From NCBI GenBank assembly GCA_043808015.1, contig JAZDFI010000007.1, positions 930-64,929 on the forward strand: a stretch of 64,000 bases of DNA, written 5' to 3'. Source of the stretch: Candidatus Aenigmatarchaeota archaeon (GTDB taxonomy: Archaea; Aenigmatarchaeota; Aenigmatarchaeia; QMZP01; QMZT01). Shown piece after piece: positions 628 through 39,830 of this stretch (position 1 is its first letter; each line of letters starts with the position of its first letter). Both the position numbers and the translations under genes were made by a program. The notes beneath the pieces are model-generated. The model saw only the letters and a program-made list of their open reading frames with translations, was not told the origin of the DNA and made no database searches.

Positions 628-1575
628 TTACTTGCCGTGCCTCATGAACTGTGCCAGCAGCGCTTCCAGCTGTATCTCAGGTGAGCCGCCCTGGTTCAGG
701 CGGAACTCGAACTCGCCTATTTTCTCGGCGAGCTGTATCTTCGTCTCCTCGGCAAGCTTCAGGTCGAATATTTCCTTGTGTATCCCTTTTATGACGTCTT
801 CGCCGGAAAGGCCCTGGGTTATGAGCAACTCGTAGAGCTTCTTCCTCGCGTCCATGAACTTGCCGGCCATCGCGCTCTCTATCATGTTGCGGATGTCCTC
901 GGGCTTCGACTGCGCCGCGGCATCGTATACGCTTTCCTTTGTGACCTTGCCCAGCGCCGAGCTCGACTGGAGAAGATTCGTCGCTTTCCTCAGGTCGCCC
1001 TCTGAAATCTCGAAAATCGCGTCAAGCGCGTCGTCATTAACCTGAATCTTCTCTCCGGCCGCGATGCGCTTCATGTATTCCTTGACGCTTTCCTTGTTGA
1101 GGCGTTTAAAACGAAAGACGGAAGTTCTCGACTGAATCGGGTCGATTATCCTGCTGGAATAATTGCATGAGAGAATGAAACGGCACGAATCGGAGAATCG
1201 TTCCATCGTTCGCCTGAGCGCCTGCTGCGCCTCCTGCGTGAGCGCGTCCGACTCGTCGAGAAACACTATTTTGAAATCAGTGCCCATCGATTTCATCCGC
1301 GCGAACTCCTTGACTCGCCCGCGCACGATGTTGATGCCCCTCTCGTCGCTAGCGTTCGTTTCCTGGAAATTACTCTTCCAGTTATTGCCGAAGAGTTCGC
1401 GTGCGAGGCATAGCGCCACCGTCGTTTTCCCGACGCCTGCCGGTCCTGCGAAAAGCATGTGAGGTATCGAGCCGCTCTTGACCCACGCCTTCAGGCGCGA
1501 GACCACGTGCTTCTGGTCCACCACGTCCTCCAGCATCTTGGGCCTGTACTTCTCCGTCCATATCTCTAGATGCAT
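628..1575 (-). CDS. rfcS: Replication factor C small subunit
   Basis: Walker A GPAGVGKTT, DEAD-like FLDESD, SRC-like SCNYSSRIIDPIQSRT. 315 aa, typical RfcS length. Confidence 0.9.
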   Translation of the reverse strand: MHLEIWTEKYRPKMLEDVVDQKHVVSRLKAWVKSGSIPHMLFAGPAGVGKTTVALCLARELFGNNWKSNFQETNASDERGINIVRGRVKEFARMKSMGTDFKIVFLDESDALTQEAQQALRRTMERFSDSCRFILSCNYSSRIIDPIQSRTSVFRFKRLNKESVKEYMKRIAAGEKIQVNDDALDAIFEISEGDLRKATNLLQSSSALGKVTKESVYDAAAQSKPEDIRNMIESAMAGKFMDARKKLYELLITQGLSGEDVIKGIHKEIFDLKLAEETKIQLAEKIGEFEFRLNQGGSPEIQLEALLAQFMRHGK

Positions 1576-2414: not shown

Positions 2415-3191
2415 TCAGATTTTTATTCTGCCTGACTGGAAGTTCTTTATTATCAGCCTGCACATGCGTTCTATGTCGGGAATGCCTCCGCGCAGGAGCA
2501 TGTGCTTCTTGAGAGCGATTTCCTCGATTGTCTTCTGCTTGTCGTCGCTCACGTCCACGCCGAAATAGGCTTCTATCTTCCCGGGATGCTTGCGCATGAG
2601 CTCCGCGACCATGAGGTCCGGGTCGTGCACCTTAGTCGAATCTATCACACTCATCGAGACGTGCTTGACAGCGTCTTTTTCCATGTAGGGTATGACTCCC
2701 GGCGAGTCTATGAAATAAAGGCGGTTATCGCTGCGTATGACCTGGGTGAACTTCGTATATCCGCTGAGGCAGCTGGTCCTGGCGGAATGCTGGCCCTTCA
2801 TGTAGTTGATGAGCGACGACTTGCCCACGTTGGGATAGCCGAGCACGCCGATGTTTATCCTGGCCTTCTTGCCATAGCGCCGCTCGGCCTCGATGATTAT
2901 GCGCTCCTTGAGCTTCGCCCTGCCTGTGTGGTCTTTCGCGGAGATGAAGACACACGGGCTCATTTTGCCCTTGTTCGACTCTGCCTTCCGCTTTTCCACC
3001 ATGTCCGACTTCGTGACGACGTAAATGAGCGGCTTCCTCGCGAGCCTGACCTTGTCCTCTATCTCGATGTTTCTCGATTCGTCCACGAAACGCGCGTCAA
3101 GCAGGAGCAGCAGGACGTCTGCCAGGCGTATTACCTTCTTCACCGAATCCCAGAAGCTCCTCTTCTTGTCTTTCCTGAACATGGTATTCAT
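2415..3191 (-). CDS. Circularly permuted GTPase (YlqF/RbgA/Nug1-like ribosome biogenesis GTPase)
   Basis: Motif order G4 (VVTKSD) - G1 (GYPNVGKSSLIN) - G3 (DSPG) shows circular permutation. Start placed at internal ATG (MNTMFRK), since the N-terminal 20 aa of the track ORF look non-native. Confidence 0.7.
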   Translation of the reverse strand: MNTMFRKDKKRSFWDSVKKVIRLADVLLLLLDARFVDESRNIEIEDKVRLARKPLIYVVTKSDMVEKRKAESNKGKMSPCVFISAKDHTGRAKLKERIIIEAERRYGKKARINIGVLGYPNVGKSSLINYMKGQHSARTSCLSGYTKFTQVIRSDNRLYFIDSPGVIPYMEKDAVKHVSMSVIDSTKVHDPDLMVAELMRKHPGKIEAYFGVDVSDDKQKTIEEIALKKHMLLRGGIPDIERMCRLIIKNFQSGRIKI

Positions 3192-3257
3192 TTGAAGCGC
3201 GAACATTAAAAGCCTGCGCCGCCGCAGGATATAAGAGGGCTGGACGAACATTATTAT

Positions 3258-4265
3258 ATGATAATAGCCATCACGGGCACGCCGGGGACCGGAAAGACTG
3301 AAGTGGCGAAGTCGCTCTCGAAACGCCTGGGCTGGAACTGGTTCTCGCTGAATTACATAGCCGCGGCTAAAGGTCTGTACGAGGGTTACGACAGCGAACG
3401 CATGTCAAAGATAGTCGATATCGCACGGCTGCGCGAGGAAGTCAATCTTCTGGCAACCGAGCACGAGAATTTCATAATCGAGTCCCATTACGCGCACGAC
3501 ATGCCGTGCGACATGGTGATTGTTTTGAGGACCGACACCACCGTCCTTAGAAAGCGCATGCTGAAAAAGGGCTTCCACACCGAGAAAGTCGCGGAGAACA
3601 TCGAGGCGGAAATGATGCAGATCATTATTGACGAGGCCGTGGCGAATCACAAGAACGTCCACGAGATTGACACGACTAGAAAAAAACCGGGAGTCGTCGC
3701 CAAGGAAATCGAGGAGATAATAAACGACCAGAGCTACGTGGAAAAGGATCTGGCCGTGCCCGAGCGGCTGCTCATGGAATTCAGGATGCCCTTCGGCAAG
3801 CTCTATAAAGGAGACAAGACCGGGGCGACCAGAACGGCCGTTAAAGAACTCAGGGGATTCAGGGGCCTGCTCGTGACGGTCGGAGATTCGGCCAGCTACT
3901 CGCTCATAAAAAGCGGCCTGCGCCCTCACATGATAATCGTCGACGGCAAGGAGAAGCGCGGCAAGTTCAAGGATAAAATCCCTTTCAAGGGAACCGAGAT
4001 AAAGGTCAGGAATCCCAAGGCGCACATAACGGCCCGGCTATGGAAAGCTGTCGAGAAGTCGATAAAAACGCTCAGGAAGAAAAAAGTCAGGATTACCGTG
4101 AGCGGAGAGGAAGACCTAGCCGTCCTGCCATGCGCCATCCATCTCCCACTCGGCAGCAAAATCGTCTACGGGCAGTTCGACGAGGGGCTCGTCGTCGTCA
4201 CGCTGGACGAGGCGAAGAAACAGAGAGCCAAGGCGCTGCTCGAGAACATACTGTTCTCGCAATAA
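3258..4265 (+). CDS. Fusion protein: Fap7/AK6-type adenylate kinase domain + DUF359-like domain (candidate GTP-dependent dephospho-CoA kinase)
   Basis: N-terminal ITGTPGTGKTEVAK P-loop and VIVLRTDTTVLRKRMLKKGF resemble AK6/Fap7. C-terminal 160 aa carry TVGD...IVDGKEKRG...SGEEDLAVLP...YGQFDEGLVVV, recalled DUF359 signatures. Single uninterrupted ORF. Confidence 0.55.
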   Translation: MIIAITGTPGTGKTEVAKSLSKRLGWNWFSLNYIAAAKGLYEGYDSERMSKIVDIARLREEVNLLATEHENFIIESHYAHDMPCDMVIVLRTDTTVLRKRMLKKGFHTEKVAENIEAEMMQIIIDEAVANHKNVHEIDTTRKKPGVVAKEIEEIINDQSYVEKDLAVPERLLMEFRMPFGKLYKGDKTGATRTAVKELRGFRGLLVTVGDSASYSLIKSGLRPHMIIVDGKEKRGKFKDKIPFKGTEIKVRNPKAHITARLWKAVEKSIKTLRKKKVRITVSGEEDLAVLPCAIHLPLGSKIVYGQFDEGLVVVTLDEAKKQRAKALLENILFSQ

Positions 4266-4817: not shown

Positions 4818-5327
4818 TTAAATCTTTTTGAGTTCATCGAAGATTCCGGCCTTCACCAGATTCGTGAGCATCATCGTCTTGACCTTCGTGTGCATGATGT
4901 TCAGCCAGTCCATTTTTTTCCTGTAATCCGCGACTTCCATGTATTTGCCGGATAATGCCAGGACGTCGTTGATTTCATCGGTCGAGGAAAGCCCGGATAT
5001 GCTCATGGCCAGACTGACCTTTTCCGGGGTATGGCTGCCGGAAAGGTCTCTCATAAGCTCTTTTTTGTAAATGGGCGCCAGGGTTTTTCTTACGCCGAGT
5101 ATGTAGCCAAGCGAACCCCATACGCCACAGCACTCCATGTTCTGCGAGAGCAGTGATTCCGAGGCTTTCTCGAGAAGCACGACCGCGTCGCCTTCCCTGC
5201 CTTCGCTCAGGGCCAGGTATCCATTTTCGTAAAACCGGTTGAGCGGGCATTCAGCGCATTTCGGGTTTCCAATCACTCCTGCAAAATCAAGAAGCGTCAT
5301 GTAATTCTTTTTATTAATCCCGTTCAT
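4818..5327 (-). CDS. Hypothetical protein (CxxCP and CC motifs)
   Basis: ORF with codon usage like neighbours. No recognisable family. Confidence 0.4.
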   Translation of the reverse strand: MNGINKKNYMTLLDFAGVIGNPKCAECPLNRFYENGYLALSEGREGDAVVLLEKASESLLSQNMECCGVWGSLGYILGVRKTLAPIYKKELMRDLSGSHTPEKVSLAMSISGLSSTDEINDVLALSGKYMEVADYRKKMDWLNIMHTKVKTMMLTNLVKAGIFDELKKI

Positions 5328-5362
5328 GCTTTAAAATTAGCCGGAACTTTTAAATCCGGAGT

Positions 5363-5776
5363 CTATCCTTCAGGCTTCTGCCAGACGCCCATGAACTTTT
5401 CCCTGGGGTATTTCTTTTCGGCCTTCTTCAGCTTGTCGACCGCGAGCGTCGGGATGTCTAAATCGAGATTGTTGGCGAGGCTGATGCAGTGGTTTATCAC
5501 GTCGGCCAGCTCGCCCCGTATCTTGTCCATGACCTGCCCGTTGTCCTTCACCTTCGCAATTTCGTCGGGCTGCATCCACTGGAATATCTCCAGCAGCTCG
5601 CCGGCTTCGACGGCAATCGAAATCGCAATATCTTTAGGGTTGTGGTATTTCTCCCAGTCGCGCTCGCGGACGAACTTTTTGACTTTGTCTTTCAGCGAAT
5701 CGAAGTCGACGTATTGCTCGCGCTCCTGCTCGGCCTGCTCTTCAGAACCAATCGTTTCATCGTCCACAGTATCCAT
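5363..5776 (-). CDS. MazG-like nucleotide pyrophosphohydrolase (all-alpha NTP-PPase)
   Basis: FVRERDWEKYHNPKDIAISIAVEAGELLEIFQW and ELADVINHCISLAN match MazG/HisE-type EExxE helices. Start at internal ATG (MDTVDDE). Confidence 0.7.
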   Translation of the reverse strand: MDTVDDETIGSEEQAEQEREQYVDFDSLKDKVKKFVRERDWEKYHNPKDIAISIAVEAGELLEIFQWMQPDEIAKVKDNGQVMDKIRGELADVINHCISLANNLDLDIPTLAVDKLKKAEKKYPREKFMGVWQKPEG

Positions 5777-25172: not shown

Positions 25173-25393
25173 TGCAATTGTTCGGAGGTAGTGTTATGAG
25201 AACGTTTGAGATTTTTGGTTTAGAGGCCGTGACTGGAGACAGACCGGAGAGGCCGTTCCCGCTCAGGCCCGGAACCGGGTTCGACAAGTTCCCGGTGCAG
25301 GACGCTGACCAGCTGTTATATACTATTGCAGCTAGCGCGTCCACTGCGTTTAATGATGTTTCAGGCATTCAGGGAATGCCTTATGGAGGGTGA
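25169..25393 (+). CDS. Small protein (74 aa) ending in Gly-Gly, translationally coupled between the wHTH gene and cdc48
   Basis: ATGA overlap with upstream stop. SD-like aggagaagagag. Its stop lies 5 nt before the cdc48 ATG. C-terminus ...GMPYGG*. Confidence 0.4.
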   Translation: MMQLFGGSVMRTFEIFGLEAVTGDRPERPFPLRPGTGFDKFPVQDADQLLYTIAASASTAFNDVSGIQGMPYGG

Positions 25394-25398
25394 TTTTC

Positions 25399-27822
25399 AT
25401 GGCAGAGAAAGACATATCGTTGAGAGTGGGAGAGCTGACTGACAGGAGCGAATCCGGCATGAGTATGGTAAGGCTGGAATCCAAGATGATGACCGAGCTC
25501 GGCATACGCGAGGGCGACGTCATCGAGCTCCAGGGCAAGAAGAAGACCGGAGCTATCGCCGTGCGCGCGTATCCGGCAGACATCGGACTGGGACTCGTGC
25601 GCATGGACGGCATAACCAGAACGAACATCGGCGTCGGCGTGGGAGAAACGGTCAAAATCGCGAAAGCGGACGTCAAAGAGGCGAAGAAAGTCGTCATCGC
25701 GCCAGCGCAGAAAGACGAAGTGCTGGAAATATCACAGGGCGTCGCCGACCTGCTCAGGCAGAACCTTATGGGCAGGCCGCTGATGAAAGGCGACGTGATA
25801 TCGCCGTCTCCCGCATCGAGAGGCAGGCCGAGGCAGCAGCAATCATTCGGCAACGACGACATGGATCCTTTTTTCGACATTTTCAGGAGCATGGGCATAA
25901 ACATCCAGGGAGGCGACTTCACGCCTTTCATCCCCATGCAGAGCGAGACGCGTTTGGCGATAGTTGCGACGCAGCCGGAGGGCAGCATAGTCAAGATAGC
26001 TCCGACGACGCAGATAGAGCTGCGCAAGGAAGCGGTTGATATCGACGCAGCTGGCAGGGTACCTACGATCACGTACGAGGACATAGGCGGCCTGCACGAC
26101 ATGCTGGTCAAGATAAGGGAAATGGTCGAGCTGCCGCTGCGCCATCCGGAGCTTTTCGTACGCCTGGGCATCGACCCGCCGAAAGGCGTTTTGCTCTACG
26201 GCCCGCCGGGAACCGGTAAAACATTGCTGGCGAAAGCCGTCGCTAACGAAAGCGGCGCGAACTTCTACTCCATCGCCGGTCCGGAAATAATGAGCAAGTG
26301 GTACGGCCAGACGGAAGAGAACCTGCGCAAGCTTTTCGAGGAAGCGCAGAAAAACGCGCCGTCGATAGTTTTCATAGACGAGATTGACGCCATAGCTCCT
26401 AAGAGGGAAGATGTGACAGGCGAGGTGGAGAAGCGTACGGTATCGCAACTGCTTGCGCTCATGGACGGCCTGAAGGCGCGCGGAAAAGTCATAGTCATCG
26501 CCGCGACCAACATGCCCAATTCGCTCGACCCCGCCCTCAGGAGGCCCGGGCGTTTCGACCGTGAAATCGAGATCGGAGTTCCGGACACAAGAGGACGCAA
26601 GGAAATTCTGCAAATACACACGAGAAACATGCCGCTCGAGCCCGACGTAGACCTGGACTTCCTTGCAGGCAGGACATACGGCTTTGTCGGCGCCGATTTG
26701 GAAGCGCTCGCCAAGGAAGCGGCTATGTCCGCGCTGAAGCGCCTTCTCCCCCAGATAACCTGGAGGAAAGAGGAGGAAATCCCGCAGGACGTGCTCAAGA
26801 AGCTGAAGGTCGGCAAGAAGGATTTCGATAACGGCCTTAAGATGGTCGAGCCGTCCGGCATGCGCGAAGTGATGATAGAGATTCCCAACGTTAAATGGAA
26901 CGACATCGGAGGCCTCGAAGGAGTGAAGCAGTCGCTGAAAGAGATAATCGAGTGGCCGCTCAAAAATCCAGAGGTCTTCACGAACATCGGCGTTTCGCCG
27001 CCGAAGGGAATCCTTCTTTACGGCCCGCCGGGAACCGGTAAAACATTGCTGGCGAAAGCCGTCGCCAGCGAGAGCGGCGCGAACTTCATATCGGTGCGCG
27101 GACCCGAGGTCCTTAGCAAATGGGTCGGCGAGAGCGAGAAGCACATACGCGAGATATTCAAGAGGGCGAAACAGGTCGCGCCGAGCATCATCTTCTTCGA
27201 CGAGATGGACGCGCTCGTGCCGCGAAGGGGGACGGACATGGGCACGCGCGTGGCAGAGAACGTGGTGTCGCAGATCCTCACCCACATGTCCGGCGTGGAA
27301 GAGATGCACAACGTCGTAGTCATCGGTGCGACGAACAGGCCGGACATACTCGACCCCGCGCTGCTGCGGCCAGGCCGCTTCGACAGGCAGGTGCTCGTGC
27401 CGGCTCCGGACGAGAAATCGAGGCTCGAGGTGCTCAAGATACACACCAAAAAAATGAAGATGAAGGACGTCGACCTGAAGAAGTTCGCGAAACTGACGGA
27501 CGGTTATTCAGGCGCTGACCTTGAGGCGCTCGTCAGAGAGGCCGGCATAAACGCCATAAGGGAGATAATGGCGAAGGAGAAGCCAGTCGAAACTGCTGTC
27601 AAAACGGCCAAGACCAAGAAAGCGAAAACCGAGAAGCCCGCCGATAATAAGGAAGAATACTTCGTGACCAAAAAGCATTTCGACGAGGCGCTGAAGAATT
27701 CGCGGCCTTCGATAACGCCCGACATGCTACGCTACTACGAGAAGATAATCGAGAGCTTCAGGAGCAGGGGCATGGAGATGAAGAAAGGCAGCAAAAAAGA
27801 GGACACCGACTATCTCGAGTAG
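25399..27822 (+). CDS. cdc48: Cdc48/VCP-like AAA+ ATPase (two AAA domains)
   Basis: N-domain plus two Walker A sites ([15 protein letters not shown] x2), Walker B DEIDA/DEMDA, SRH regions. Start at ATG 25399 (track 25390 is GTG). Confidence 0.95.
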
Positions 27823-28333: not shown

Positions 28334-28504
28334 TACGTCTTGGATTTCTCCGGGCTGGCCCACTTTATGTTTTTCTCCGCCCTGCCCATTTTCCAGTTCT
28401 TATGGCACTTGGAGCCACAGAAGTAAAATATGCGTCCGTCGTTGCGAACGTACATCTTTCCCGTCCCTCTCGCCATGTTTGTCTTGCACATCGAGCATTT
28501 CATG
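28334..28504 (-). CDS. rpl24e: Ribosomal protein L24e
   Basis: MKCSMCKTNMARGTGKMYVRNDGRIFYFCGSKCHKNW is the C4 zinc-ribbon L24e signature. Not in ORF track (56 aa). Confidence 0.8.
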
Positions 28505-28520
28505 TTTTCACTTTCCCGGC

Positions 28521-28718
28521 TTAACCGGACATCCTGCCTGAGGCGTCCATCTCGGTGTCTTTGAGCAATATGATGTCGCCTTTCCTTATCGGGCCGGAGA
28601 CGTTGCGCATCAGAACCTTGCCTTTATCCCTGCCTTCAAGGACTTTGCAGCGGACTTTGGTTACGCCTTTTACTCCAAGCTTCTCCAATACCTGAATGAT
28701 TTCAGCAGTAACTACCAT
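28521..28718 (-). CDS. rps28e: Ribosomal protein S28e
   Basis: [48 protein letters not shown] matches S28e throughout. Confidence 0.9.
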
Positions 28719-28729
28719 GGTTCATCCTC

Positions 28730-29107
28730 TTAAGCCTGAACGGCGTGTCCTTCAAGCTTCCTTTTTATGTCGTCGACGAGCTTCTTCGAGTCTCCCACCT
28801 CTTCGATGGCGATGCTCGAGGTGCCGACTTCAAGGCCCGCGGCCTTGCCAAGTTCGAGTTTAGAAGGCACTTCAACGCAAAGAACTTTCTTCTCGTTGCA
28901 AATCACGGGAAGGTGCATTACGACTTCTTCTGGCGTCACATCCGTCGCGAGTATGACCATCTTGGCCATGCCGCGCTCTATGCACTTTGTCGTCTCATTG
29001 ACGCCTTTTCTCAGTTTGCCCGTGCTGCTTGCAGCTTCTATCGCTTCGTAAATCTTGTCCGTAAGATCCTTGGATATCTCGATTTTCACGAATTTTGCCA
29101 TATTCAT
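28730..29107 (-). CDS. rpl7ae: Ribosomal protein L7Ae (K-turn binding)
   Basis: GKLRKGVNETTKCIERGMAKMVILATDVTPEEVVMHLPVICNEKKV is the L7Ae/L30e/Nhp2 core. Start may be 29101 (MAKF). Confidence 0.9.
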   Translation of the reverse strand: MNMAKFVKIEISKDLTDKIYEAIEAASSTGKLRKGVNETTKCIERGMAKMVILATDVTPEEVVMHLPVICNEKKVLCVEVPSKLELGKAAGLEVGTSSIAIEEVGDSKKLVDDIKRKLEGHAVQA

Positions 29108-29287
29108 CCCTCCTCGCTGCCCGCTTTCTTCGACAGACGGCTTGGATTTAAGTCCCAGGCCGTCATACGCCAGCGAACAACTCAGTCATATATTAATACA
29201 CTAATTAATGCTGTATTGTATTTAAATATATCGCCCTACAATTATTGTAAATCACCGGTTAGCGTTACCGGACCAGAGAGGATAAAT

Positions 29288-37644: not shown

Positions 37645-37845
37645 ATGAAAATCATCGCCGAGTTCCAGGGCAGGAAACACACGCTCGTCCTGCCGGATAA
37701 AGCGAAAGCGATAGACGCCGTGCAAAAGCTCGGCGTGAACCCGGAAACAGTCCTCGTCAAGCGCGGCAGGGAGATAATAACTGACGACGAGCCGCTGGCG
37801 AACAACGATAAAATAGAGCTGATAAAAGTCGTTTCAGGCGGATGA
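37645..37845 (+). CDS. samp: Ubiquitin-like small archaeal modifier protein / MoaD-ThiS-like sulfur carrier (C-terminal GG)
   Basis: 66 aa, beta-grasp-like pattern, ends ...ELIKVVSGG*. TATA-like cttttatatt upstream. NcsA/TtuA homolog two genes away. Confidence 0.75.
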   Translation: MKIIAEFQGRKHTLVLPDKAKAIDAVQKLGVNPETVLVKRGREIITDDEPLANNDKIELIKVVSGG

Positions 37846-38796
37846 TTGCCCGGCCATGAAGCCGAGCGCCTTTTCAGCGAGCGTGTTGTAAATCCTGATC
37901 TCGTCTTTTGTAAGCTCGTAAATCCGCCCTCCGGGCAGATACATTTTGTTGGCGAATCTTTGCTCGTATATGGGGTGGCACGTCTCGCCGAAAAGATCGT
38001 CGAGGAAGCTGTATATGCCAAGCACCTGGAACGAAACCGGATCCTGCGGTGAATACTCCAGTAGCGTGTTTCTGATGTCAACTTTGTGGTGCGGGTATGG
38101 CTTTTCCTTGTATTCGAGATGTGGTTGGTCAAGTTGTCTCATCACTATGTTTGCTCTGCCCATCTGTCGTTCTCGTCTGCTTTCGTCTCCCATGAGCACG
38201 AGCCTTATCTTGGCCCAGTCGTTTATCGAGGCCACGTTTCTCACGTAGTCCCTGATTGCCTTCGGGTCCTCGAGGCCTTCTGCCGGCGCGCTTTTGTAAT
38301 GGGCTACTCTTTTGGCCACCTTGCGCACGCCCCTGTCCGTCATCTTAAGGCCTGTGAAAATCATCATGTTCTCCTTTGCAGGCACGCACAATTTCAGGTT
38401 GAGGTTTTCCCCGGAAAGGTAAGGTGTTTTTTCATTTTTCATTCTTGCCTGTTCGTCATCGAGAAGCCTCTTGTAGTGTGAAAGGTCCGCGTCGAGGTTG
38501 TACGCAGTTTTGCCTATCCTGTCAATCATTCTCTTTCTGAAAGCGTGATAATTGGCGAATTTTTCTTCTTCCTTGGATGCACAGTGGTTGCCCATGAGCA
38601 TGCCGCCGATGCGCTGCACGTTTTCCAGGTTCTCGTGCCTCCTTTCTTCGAGCTGCTTTCTTATGATATCACCGTGGGACGAAGCGATGCCTATGCCCCA
38701 AGGGTCCATTACCTCCATCATGAGCTGGGACGTGTTGAGCGTTTCGAGGTATTTCTTCACGTCTTCCTCATGCCTAGGTAGTTCTATTTCTGACAT
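37834..38796 (-). CDS. Hypothetical protein (320 aa), convergent with samp and divergent from ncsA
   Basis: Long ORF with native codon usage. No family recognised. Confidence 0.5.
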   Translation of the reverse strand: MSEIELPRHEEDVKKYLETLNTSQLMMEVMDPWGIGIASSHGDIIRKQLEERRHENLENVQRIGGMLMGNHCASKEEEKFANYHAFRKRMIDRIGKTAYNLDADLSHYKRLLDDEQARMKNEKTPYLSGENLNLKLCVPAKENMMIFTGLKMTDRGVRKVAKRVAHYKSAPAEGLEDPKAIRDYVRNVASINDWAKIRLVLMGDESRRERQMGRANIVMRQLDQPHLEYKEKPYPHHKVDIRNTLLEYSPQDPVSFQVLGIYSFLDDLFGETCHPIYEQRFANKMYLPGGRIYELTKDEIRIYNTLAEKALGFMAGQSSA

Positions 38797-38879
38797 AATT
38801 TTAGTATGTTTTAGTAGTTAATAAAGCTTCATTTTAGCTTCGGGGCGGCATTTTTATATAATCCGCGCCTTCTCTAATT

Positions 38880-39830
38880 ATGGCCAAAATAAAGAGCGGA
38901 TTCGCATCCGCAACATGCACAAAATGCGGGAAAAAAGCGGTATACCACAGGCGATACGAGGGGACGTATCTCTGCCGCGGCCACTTCATCCAGAGCGTGG
39001 AAGACAAGGTGCGCAAGACCATGCGCAAGGGCAGGATGATAGGGCACGGAGAGACTGTCGCCTTCGCCGTTTCAGGAGGCAAGGATTCGACGGCCGCGTT
39101 GTACATGCTGCACAAAATCCTGCGCAAGCGGCGAGACGTAGCGATGTTTGCCATAACCATAGACGAGGGCATCCCCGGTTACCGCGACGAGAGCCTGAAA
39201 ATCGCGGGCAAGCTGTGCAAAAAACTCGGCATAAAGCATCATGTTTTTTCATTCGAAAGCGAGTTCGCCAGGCCGCTGAGCGACGTCGTCAAGGGTCTTA
39301 AAAAATCCGGCAAGTGGGAGGGGACGGCATGCACCTATTGCGGGCTCGCCCGCCGCTGGCTGCTGAACAGGAAAGCGAGGGAGCTTGGGGCGAACAAGAT
39401 CGTGTTCGGCATGAACCTCGACGACGAGGTGCAGGGCATAATGATGGACTACATACGCGGCGACCTGATGCGCCTGGCGCGCATGGGAGGCGAGCCGCTG
39501 GTCCAGAGCAGGCTTTTCGTGCCGCGCATAAAGCCTTTCCGCGAAATCCCGGAGCGCGAGATCGGGCTTTACGCCATACTAAACGGACTCGAAATACAGG
39601 AGAACGAGTGCCCTTATATCGAAGGGCCGCGGTTCAAGGTGCGCGACTTCCTGAACACGCTCGAATCAGAGAGCCCGGGCACGAAATTCTCGGTGCTCAA
39701 CACGTTCCTGCGCTTGGCTCCTGGCATACGAGACGTCATAAAGCGCGACGGCTTCGAGCTGCTGCGCTGCGAGAAGTGCGGCGAGCCCAGCTCGCAGAAG
39801 GTATGCAAGACGTGCGAGCTGTGGAGATAG
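38880..39830 (+). CDS. ncsA: NcsA/TtuA/Ncs6-family tRNA 2-thiolation protein (PP-loop ATPase with Zn fingers and Fe-S Cys)
   Basis: N-terminal CTKCG...CRGH zinc finger, PP-loop SGGKDS, CTYCG Fe-S ligands, C-terminal CEKCG...CKTC. Confidence 0.8.
   Translation: MAKIKSGFASATCTKCGKKAVYHRRYEGTYLCRGHFIQSVEDKVRKTMRKGRMIGHGETVAFAVSGGKDSTAALYMLHKILRKRRDVAMFAITIDEGIPGYRDESLKIAGKLCKKLGIKHHVFSFESEFARPLSDVVKGLKKSGKWEGTACTYCGLARRWLLNRKARELGANKIVFGMNLDDEVQGIMMDYIRGDLMRLARMGGEPLVQSRLFVPRIKPFREIPEREIGLYAILNGLEIQENECPYIEGPRFKVRDFLNTLESESPGTKFSVLNTFLRLAPGIRDVIKRDGFELLRCEKCGEPSSQKVCKTCELWR

Follow-up and report, generated by a model that had tools for sequence, protein, structure and literature searches.

The gene at positions 3258-4265 (+) of a 64,000-nucleotide stretch of contig JAZDFI010000007.1, from a Candidatus Aenigmatarchaeota archaeon, encodes a Fap7/AK6-type P-loop kinase fused to a DUF359 domain, the family of the archaeal GTP-dependent dephospho-coenzyme A (CoA) kinases (DPCK). 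This whole stretch is referred to below as the window. The open reading frame (ORF) starts with ATG, encodes 335 amino acids and has no internal stops, in line with a first-pass annotation of the DNA that had called it a single-ORF fusion, and the same continuous ORF recurs in about 60 independent protein clusters. An exact look-up of the protein matched no record; its orthologue in LacPavin_0920_SED3_MAG_50_31 (L011) is 92% identical and equal in length. Judged from its sequence, the product is probably bifunctional, with two complete and catalytically competent domains that would do separate jobs through independent activities. The fusion is a new, lineage-restricted domain architecture of two known families and reveals no new enzyme. 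No description of a Fap7-DUF359 fusion was found in the searchable literature, where the only DUF359 fusion described is PPAT-arCOG04076 (PMC6650551, PMC6393860).

The identity of both domains is backed by four routes, namely Pfam, NCBIfam, a sequence search of the PDB and Foldseek. Pfam placed AAA_18 at residues 3-121 (E 1.5e-23) and DUF359 (PF04019) at residues 213-330 (E 2.7e-33; 114.7 bits against a gathering cutoff of 25), the latter match covering positions 2-124 of the 126 in the profile, so that the domain calls proposed as a check in the first-pass annotation were both found and the C-terminal half is indeed DUF359. Among NCBIfam models, PRK03839 (Fap7-type 'putative kinase') matched residues 1-158 at 6.4e-38 and NF041125 (Thermococcales GTP-dependent DPCK) matched residues 167-329 at 6.6e-30. 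Both equivalog scores lie below their curated cutoffs (130.5 against 152 for PRK03839 and 103.9 against 300 for NF041125). For NF041125 this is expected of a DPANN sequence because the model was built for Thermococcales, and the cutoff is a weak guide to function here. The earlier assignment of residues 1-175 to the kinase and of about 180-335 to DUF359 named the right domains but set their limits slightly off, as the kinase core ends at about residue 158 and DUF359, counted with its N-terminal helix, starts at about 163-167. The motifs on which that assignment leaned are all where they should be: the GTPGTGKT P-loop at residues 7-14, the segment VIVLRTDTTVLRKRMLKKGF, said to match human AK6, within the phmmer alignment to 1rkb, and TVGD, IVDGKEKRG, GEEDLAVLP and YGQFDEGLVVV, taken as DUF359 signatures, inside the DUF359 match.

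In the PDB sequence search the N-terminal half matched Pyrococcus abyssi Fap7 (4cvn, 4e-30) and human AK6/hCINAP (1rkb and 3iij, about 1e-20); Fap7/AK6 entries led the matches (4e-30 to 2e-12), whereas classical kinases had E > 0.3. Foldseek separated the two groups in the same way, with TM scores of 0.72-0.79 for Fap7/AK6 against 0.52-0.61 for classical adenylate kinases, and target-normalised scores to 4cvn/4cw7 of 0.76-0.79. A Pfam CoaE match was limited to the P-loop (E 0.055). The window kinase half is 38% identical to P. abyssi Fap7 over 158 aligned positions and resembles archaeal Fap7 (4cvn/4cw7) and eukaryotic Fap7/AK6/hCINAP (1rkb, 3iij) in fold, P-loop, Walker-B histidine and LID arginines and lysines. 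Walker A together with the acidic-x-His motif (yeast D82/H84, human H79) is needed for ATPase/adenylate kinase activity and for 20S processing (PMC4019466). Across the fused family, G7, P9, G12 and K13 are invariant in 33/33 sequences (K13 in 61/61), and H77, the equivalent of yeast H84, and H80 are invariant in 61/61. The acidic Walker-B position 75 is mostly Glu in the fused proteins (E46/D9/Q6 among 61), in contrast to the Asp of known Fap7. The basic LID residues R87, R96, R100 and K106 of archaeal Fap7 (aFap7) are matched by R91 (58/61), R100 (60/61), K104 and K110 (61/61), where K104, which takes the place of the LID sensor Arg100, is Lys in 45 and Arg in 16 of the 61 fused sequences. 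E113 is likewise invariant (61/61), R98 is present in 97% and D85, N114 and E118 in 100% of fused sequences. With the Rps14 contacts of P. abyssi Fap7 taken from PMC4019466, K106 (K110), E109 (E113) and E122 (E126) are kept and E116 is mostly kept.

The C-terminal half matched the Thermococcus kodakarensis DPCK (8jvc) at 1e-20 with the full-length query and at 3e-21 alone, and Foldseek aligned it to 8jvc/8jvg/8jvf with E of 3e-16 to 4e-12 and target-normalised TM scores of 0.83-0.89. Window residues 171-327 align to residues 11-167 of TK1697 (DUF359/arCOG04076/UPF0218) at about 30-32% identity, and the predicted structure has the fold of that enzyme, a thiamine-pyrophosphokinase-like Rossmann variant. 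Genetics and biochemistry have validated TK1697 as a DPCK: knockout of the gene leads to CoA auxotrophy, GTP is the phosphate donor of the enzyme, and Ala at D48, D67 or D125 impaired complementation of the auxotrophic knockout (PMC6650551). With the TK1697 numbering verified against the mutagenesis primers published in PMC6650551 and by alignment, these three residues correspond to D210, D229 and D286, all Asp in 61/61 fused sequences, which makes the earlier proposal of a candidate GTP-dependent DPCK a reasonable one. The residues invariant in this half are G209-D210, D229, W262, G283-E284, D286, P291 and Y304-G305. Both halves are under purifying selection: against L011, Nei-Gojobori dN/dS is 0.23 over codons 1-160 and falls to 0.14 over codons 161-335, and neither half looks like a relic.

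The two hidden Markov model (HMM) matches, kinase and DUF359, are separated by 6-13 residues in every fused protein. AlphaFold2, given a family alignment of 33 sequences, produced a model with a mean predicted local distance difference test (pLDDT) of 87.7, with the lowest confidence in the LID region (64-71), and a predicted template modelling score (pTM) of 0.57. High pLDDT with such a pTM fits two self-contained domains, and the model accordingly shows two well-folded domains whose mutual orientation is undefined. The join resembles that of the PPAT-DUF359 fusion (AIF21550.1 in PMC6650551; P0106, P0379 and P0390), which measures about 330-340 amino acids in total, also has DUF359 at its C-terminus and is joined just before the DUF359 N-terminal helix (KDLxxP...PFGxL). 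In P0106 the joining point is identical, with KDLAITP...PFGKL against KDLAVPE...PFGKL in the window protein. As DUF359 is C-terminal and joined at the same point in both architectures, it resembles a portable cassette for C-terminal attachment. The partners differ: PPAT, whose fusion to DUF359 led to the discovery of the archaeal DPCK (PMC6650551), is the preceding enzyme of the pathway, while the partner in the window is a ribosome-biogenesis ATPase that shares no substrate with DUF359. Eukaryotic COASY and bacterial CoaE catalyse the same final reaction of CoA synthesis, and COASY is likewise a fusion protein (PMC6650551). Their DPCK, however, is a P-loop kinase unrelated to DUF359, whereas the P-loop domain of the window protein is of the Fap7 type.

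Table 1 Features of the fusion gene and of its neighbours in the window
Feature	Position	Strand	Basis or remark
Complete fap7::DUF359 fusion gene	3258..4265	+	Single ORF, two-domain calls; 335 codons + TAA stop
Fap7/AK6-type P-loop kinase domain, residues 1-158	3258..3731	+	PRK03839, 4cvn, Foldseek
Walker A / P-loop GTPGTGKT, residues 7-14	3276..3299	+	Residue conservation
Walker-B-like ESHYAH, residues 75-80	3480..3497	+	H77 = aFap7 H73 / human H79
LID region, ~residues 91-118 (R91, R98, R100, K104, K110, E113, N114, E118)	3528..3611	+	Conservation
Junction, kinase core to DUF359 N-terminal helix, residues 159-166	3732..3755	+	Gap between HMM matches
DUF359 / arCOG04076 GTP-dependent dephospho-CoA kinase domain, residues 167-330	3756..4247	+	Pfam, NF041125, 8jvc, Foldseek
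Asp210 (GAT) = TK1697 Asp48	3885..3887	+	Alignment; 61/61 Asp
Asp229 (GAC) = TK1697 Asp67	3942..3944	+	Alignment; 61/61 Asp
Asp286 (GAC), within GEED = TK1697 Asp125	4113..4115	+	Alignment; 61/61 Asp
RFC small subunit, conserved divergent partner of fap7	628..1575	-	Pfam Rep_fac_C/AAA
Circularly permuted MMR_HSR1/RsgA-type GTPase ('50S ribosome-binding GTPase' family)	2415..3251	-	Pfam MMR_HSR1 4.3e-16, RsgA_GTPase 4e-05

A search of 5.8 billion clustered proteins returned about 66 clusters with both PF13238 and PF04019. These fused clusters are 38-92% identical to the window protein, mostly 325-349 amino acids long with a few longer, and stem from JGI, ENA, NCBI and Logan assemblies. Almost all named ones belong to 'Candidatus Aenigmarchaeota/Aenigmatarchaeota' (DPANN, kingdom Nanobdellati), and among reliably named carriers the fusion is restricted to Aenigmatarchaeota, which provides the phylogenetic distribution that the first-pass annotation had wished to see. 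One fused protein labelled 'Candidatus Peribacteraceae bacterium' (P0026, MCK5016617.1) is probably misbinned, as is a standalone Fap7 on a contig labelled 'Campylobacterales bacterium' (L054, JAIVYO010000044.1). An exhaustive HMMER pass over 1.84 billion representatives at 50% identity yielded 23 proteins at E <= 1e-30, about 10 of them full-length fused, and weaker matches were exclusively standalone Fap7 or standalone DUF359. The fusion had been called unusual, and with about 10 such representatives in 1.84 billion it is rare overall, but within part of the Aenigmatarchaeota it is the normal, selected state. Among GTDB species representatives, 7 genomes carry the full fusion (L011-L017) and more than 15 other Aenigmatarchaeota genomes carry standalone fap7, in a scan whose patterns came from the Fap7 half only and may miss divergent fusions. 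In a neighbour-joining tree of the Fap7 domain, eight standalone Aenigmatarchaeota Fap7 interleave with the fused ones on internal branches of 0.001-0.02; in the DUF359 tree, the smallest split that holds all fused sequences contains only three nested 'standalone' sequences in 8/200 bootstrap replicates.

The genomic surroundings suggest how the two domains came together. RFC small-subunit genes (RFC-S) adjoin fap7, whether fused or standalone, in most loci checked: the divergent RFC-S/fap7 pair stands beside fused genes in L001, L003, L005, L007 and L010-L012 and beside standalone fap7 in L018-L022, L024-L026, L028, L030, L031, L034, L035, L053, L059, L066 and L086. Standalone fap7 of related Aenigmatarchaeota thus occupies the same genomic position as the fusion. 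That the pair is common to both forms speaks for orthology of the N-terminal half with ordinary fap7, and the constancy of the pairing suggests that fap7 stayed in place while DUF359 was added. The known archaeal and eukaryotic Fap7 carries a 15-40-residue Rps14-contacting C-terminal extension, where the window protein has DUF359 instead. The nearest standalone Fap7 proteins (L018-L024, L027, L028, L055) stop 1-10 residues past the core, as opposed to 13-40 in other archaea, and because they are already short the extension was probably lost before, or independently of, the fusion.

TK1697 is a standalone protein of about 177 residues with homologues in an Spt4-S24e-S27ae cluster, in contrast to the window DUF359, which makes up the C-terminal half of a fusion and has another genomic location. 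Among the standalone DUF359 proteins found, the closest (P0122, 42% identity; L091:1834-10065, JGI Ga0314843_0000002) lies in a 14-gene cluster of the order L7Ae-S28e-L24e-NDK-aIF5B-S6e-aIF2gamma-PIN-RpoE-Spt4-DUF359-S24e-S27ae-Kae1. In L091 a CoA enzyme thus has a transcription elongation factor on one side and two ribosomal proteins on the other. The window keeps just the L7Ae-S28e-L24e head of that cluster (28336-29185, -). On the lower-coordinate side of its L24e, the expected place of NDK, there are a 130-amino-acid ORF and a Cdc48-type AAA ATPase (25390-27822, +), and the L7Ae superoperon is fragmented in this genome. A further arrangement is found in L055:341-5495, with NDK(-), DUF359(+), two unknown genes, RFC-S(-), fap7(+) and peptidase M48(+), where a standalone DUF359 divergently adjacent to NDK is 3.5 kb from the RFC-S/fap7 pair. 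The fused locus L003 reads RFC-S, His_Phos, fusion, peptidase M48. By its gene order L055 looks like an intermediate state. It was the only fetched standalone-fap7 locus with DUF359 nearby, none being found elsewhere within up to 5 kb on each side, and a simple read-through of two long-adjacent genes was rejected for this reason. Taken together, an ancestral fap7 locus, P0122 in the Spt4 cluster and L055 suggest that DUF359 probably moved to fap7 and was then fused.

Based on these comparisons, the N-terminal domain would be the organism's Fap7, an ATPase/adenylate kinase of the AK6 type that serves as chaperone of uS11 (Rps14) on its way into the small subunit and hydrolyses ATP to load or release it during 30S maturation, as described for Fap7 in PMC4019466. 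The C-terminal domain would act as a DUF359-type DPCK and transfer a phosphate, probably from GTP, to the 3'-OH of dephospho-CoA to give CoA. We infer that each domain keeps its family function. Independent action of the two is suggested because the AK6/Fap7 (PMC4019466) and TK1697 (PMC6650551) reactions have neither substrates nor products in common, no fixed interface emerges from the model (pTM 0.57) and DUF359 acts like a portable cassette. No second Fap7 or DUF359 copy was found in the 64-kb window, so that both functions would fall to this gene unless another copy exists beyond these 64 kb. The fusion would have arisen in a sublineage of Aenigmatarchaeota in which fap7 remained at its ancestral position, in divergent orientation to the RFC small subunit, and had probably lost its C-terminal extension before or independently. 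DUF359 probably left its home between Spt4 and S24e and settled nearby, as in L055, and an in-frame join to the 3' end of fap7 would then have put a 6-13-residue linker, which runs into the DUF359 N-terminal helix, in place of the stop codon. Rather than in substrate channelling, the benefit may lie in expressing two housekeeping functions together and, with a genome of about 1 Mb, in dispensing with an intergenic region.

Several observations weigh against this picture. Acidic Rps14-contact residues of Fap7 are replaced (E49->M, E51->K, D117->Q, D125->A) and variable across the fused family, and the Rps14-contacting C-terminal extension is absent from the Fap7 half, so that uS11 binding may differ. 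Neither the window nor any of the fused loci yielded a PPAT: an HMM built from PPAT homologues gave no match in 830 kb of window and related loci except a standalone gene in L023, and the best 120 of 4,052 matches in a PPAT homologue search were Archaeoglobi, Methanocellales and similar, none linked to a fusion contig. In L023 (Ca. Mnemosynella bozhongmuii) that standalone PPAT and a standalone fap7 (1595-2233 and 4992-5513) are about 3 kb apart, which may be a coincidence. DPANN archaea reportedly are without most cofactor biosynthesis (PMC8407392). Monophyly of the fusion is neither shown nor refuted by either domain tree, as the deep branches are too short to settle a single origin. Finally, links between DUF359 and translation are of three independent kinds (the Spt4/S24e operon, the fusion itself and tails rich in Lys and Arg), which is above chance co-location.

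These links could mean that DUF359 and Fap7 cooperate on the small subunit as it matures, where DUF359 would tie assembly to CoA/GTP status or use an adenosine-containing RNA or nucleotide substrate in place of dephospho-CoA or in addition to it, a reading that we consider rather unlikely but the strongest of the rivals. It would agree with the placement of standalone DUF359 between Spt4 and S24e/S27ae in a translation/transcription superoperon, with its fusion to a 30S assembly factor in this lineage, with the divergent neighbour in the subclade of the window, a circularly permuted GTPase of the ribosome-biogenesis type, and with the failure to detect PPAT near fused genes or in the window. 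Some fused proteins also carry Lys/Arg-rich, low-complexity tails after DUF359, typical of RNA-binding extensions (about 95 residues in P0043/P0044, L010:1448-2734, and 10-30 in P0037/P0061), for which Pfam gave no match. Such tails, however, occur in a minority of members, co-location with ribosomal genes is common among unrelated housekeeping genes, and the model, with its pTM of 0.57, does not speak for a fixed interface between the domains. Moreover, the three catalytic aspartates and the whole fold are retained, and the family member TK1697 is a validated DPCK whose knockout is a CoA auxotroph (PMC6650551). In a bolder and still less likely version, DUF359 would have been recruited to 30S biogenesis through Fap7, so that CoA/GTP status gates maturation or DUF359 phosphorylates an adenosine 3'-OH on a target different from free dephospho-CoA, for example an RNA-linked or salvaged nucleotide; if true, this would also explain the Spt4-DUF359-S24e/S27ae placement in other archaea.

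Alternatively, the protein could be a CoA-pathway enzyme with an auxiliary nucleotide kinase, its P-loop half having given up the Fap7 role to manage nucleotide pools or to bind the adenylate of dephospho-CoA. AK6-type proteins do have adenylate or broad nucleoside monophosphate (NMP) kinase activity (PMC4019466), some members go by 'broad-specificity NMP kinase' at JGI, conservation does not extend to several Rps14-contact residues or to the C-terminal extension, and the DUF359 gene of L055 adjoins NDK, also present in the L091 cluster, which would regenerate GTP. This reading is nonetheless improbable, as the N-terminal half holds the RFC-S-adjacent locus that standalone fap7 has in sister lineages and is the only Fap7 in the window, GDP is not turned back into GTP by an adenylate kinase reaction, the nearest standalone Fap7 proteins lack the extension too, so that its loss is not specific to the fusion, and K110 and E113, which equal the Rps14-contacting K106 and E109, are invariant. 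An inactive relic in one of the halves, be it a degenerate DPCK serving as a structural appendage or a degenerate Fap7, would fit the sub-cutoff NCBIfam scores and the tendency of DPANN genomes to lose pathways. It is very improbable given that every catalytic residue tested is invariant (61/61), dN/dS is 0.14-0.23 across the halves, both folds are predicted confidently and the NCBIfam cutoffs are tuned to narrow clades such as Thermococcales. An assembly or frameshift artefact merging two adjacent genes, a worry raised in the first-pass annotation, is practically excluded by the continuous ORF in about 60 clusters from JGI, ENA, NCBI and Logan. L007 does have the halves as separate overlapping ORFs, but it differs from fused L012 of the same species just by a 1-nt deletion and two substitutions at a single spot in the linker (1640-1665); it was rejected as a natural split form and probably stems from an error in the assembly or consensus, the site being polymorphic or of low quality. 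Two apparently standalone DUF359 proteins, P0290 and P0348, nest in the fused clade with 97-100% bootstrap. Fission was rejected here as well, because the frame upstream of both runs on into the end of a Fap7 domain and the genes (in L093 and L094, respectively) are fused ones cut at contig ends. The 1.2-kb contig of L094 has an in-frame stop within the Fap7 part (L094:1-125), 20 nt from its edge, which could be an end-of-contig error or a decaying Fap7 half.

With PPAT-DUF359 and DUF359-DHH, the fusion brings the DUF359 fusion architectures to three, and it is the sole one of them with a partner outside CoA/nucleotide metabolism. The DHH architecture is seen in P0324 (494 amino acids), in which an N-terminal DUF359 is fused to a DHH/DHHA1 phosphoesterase. 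Together with the Spt4-DUF359-S24e-S27ae arrangement, the fusion gives a second, independent hint that expression or function of the archaeal DPCK is tied to translation. It also indicates strong selection on the last CoA step in one DPANN sublineage or more, despite the reported lack of cofactor pathways, and the two together suggest that dephospho-CoA or 4'-phosphopantetheine is salvaged, with a host or the environment as its source. A naturally tethered Fap7 that lacks the C-terminal extension could serve the study of how archaeal Fap7 handles uS11. In databases the fused proteins bear names that cover half only ('DUF359 domain-containing protein', 'adenylate kinase', 'broad-specificity NMP kinase/UPF0218'), which the two-domain assignment corrects.

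The GTPase gene upstream is divergent from the fusion across a gap of at most about 70 bp, a pairing that recurs solely in the closest relatives L001 and L011. Its true start probably lies about 20 codons inside the ORF, judging by the 257-amino-acid orthologue in L001. On the 3' side the fusion is followed by aTrm56, a hypothetical gene, a MazG-like protein, an OB+HD protein and the RFC large subunit, and the gene order in L001, a 69%-identical relative, equals that of the window. In L003 a separate DHH/DHHA1 gene lies about 2 kb 3' of the fusion. Farther along the window, at 37645-39830, an ORF that appears ThiS/MoaD-like stands beside a putative TtuA/NcsA-type tRNA thiolation ORF, with a possible DHH on the other strand, as read from N-terminal sequence only; this set would equal the DHH-ThiS-TtuA trio in L003.

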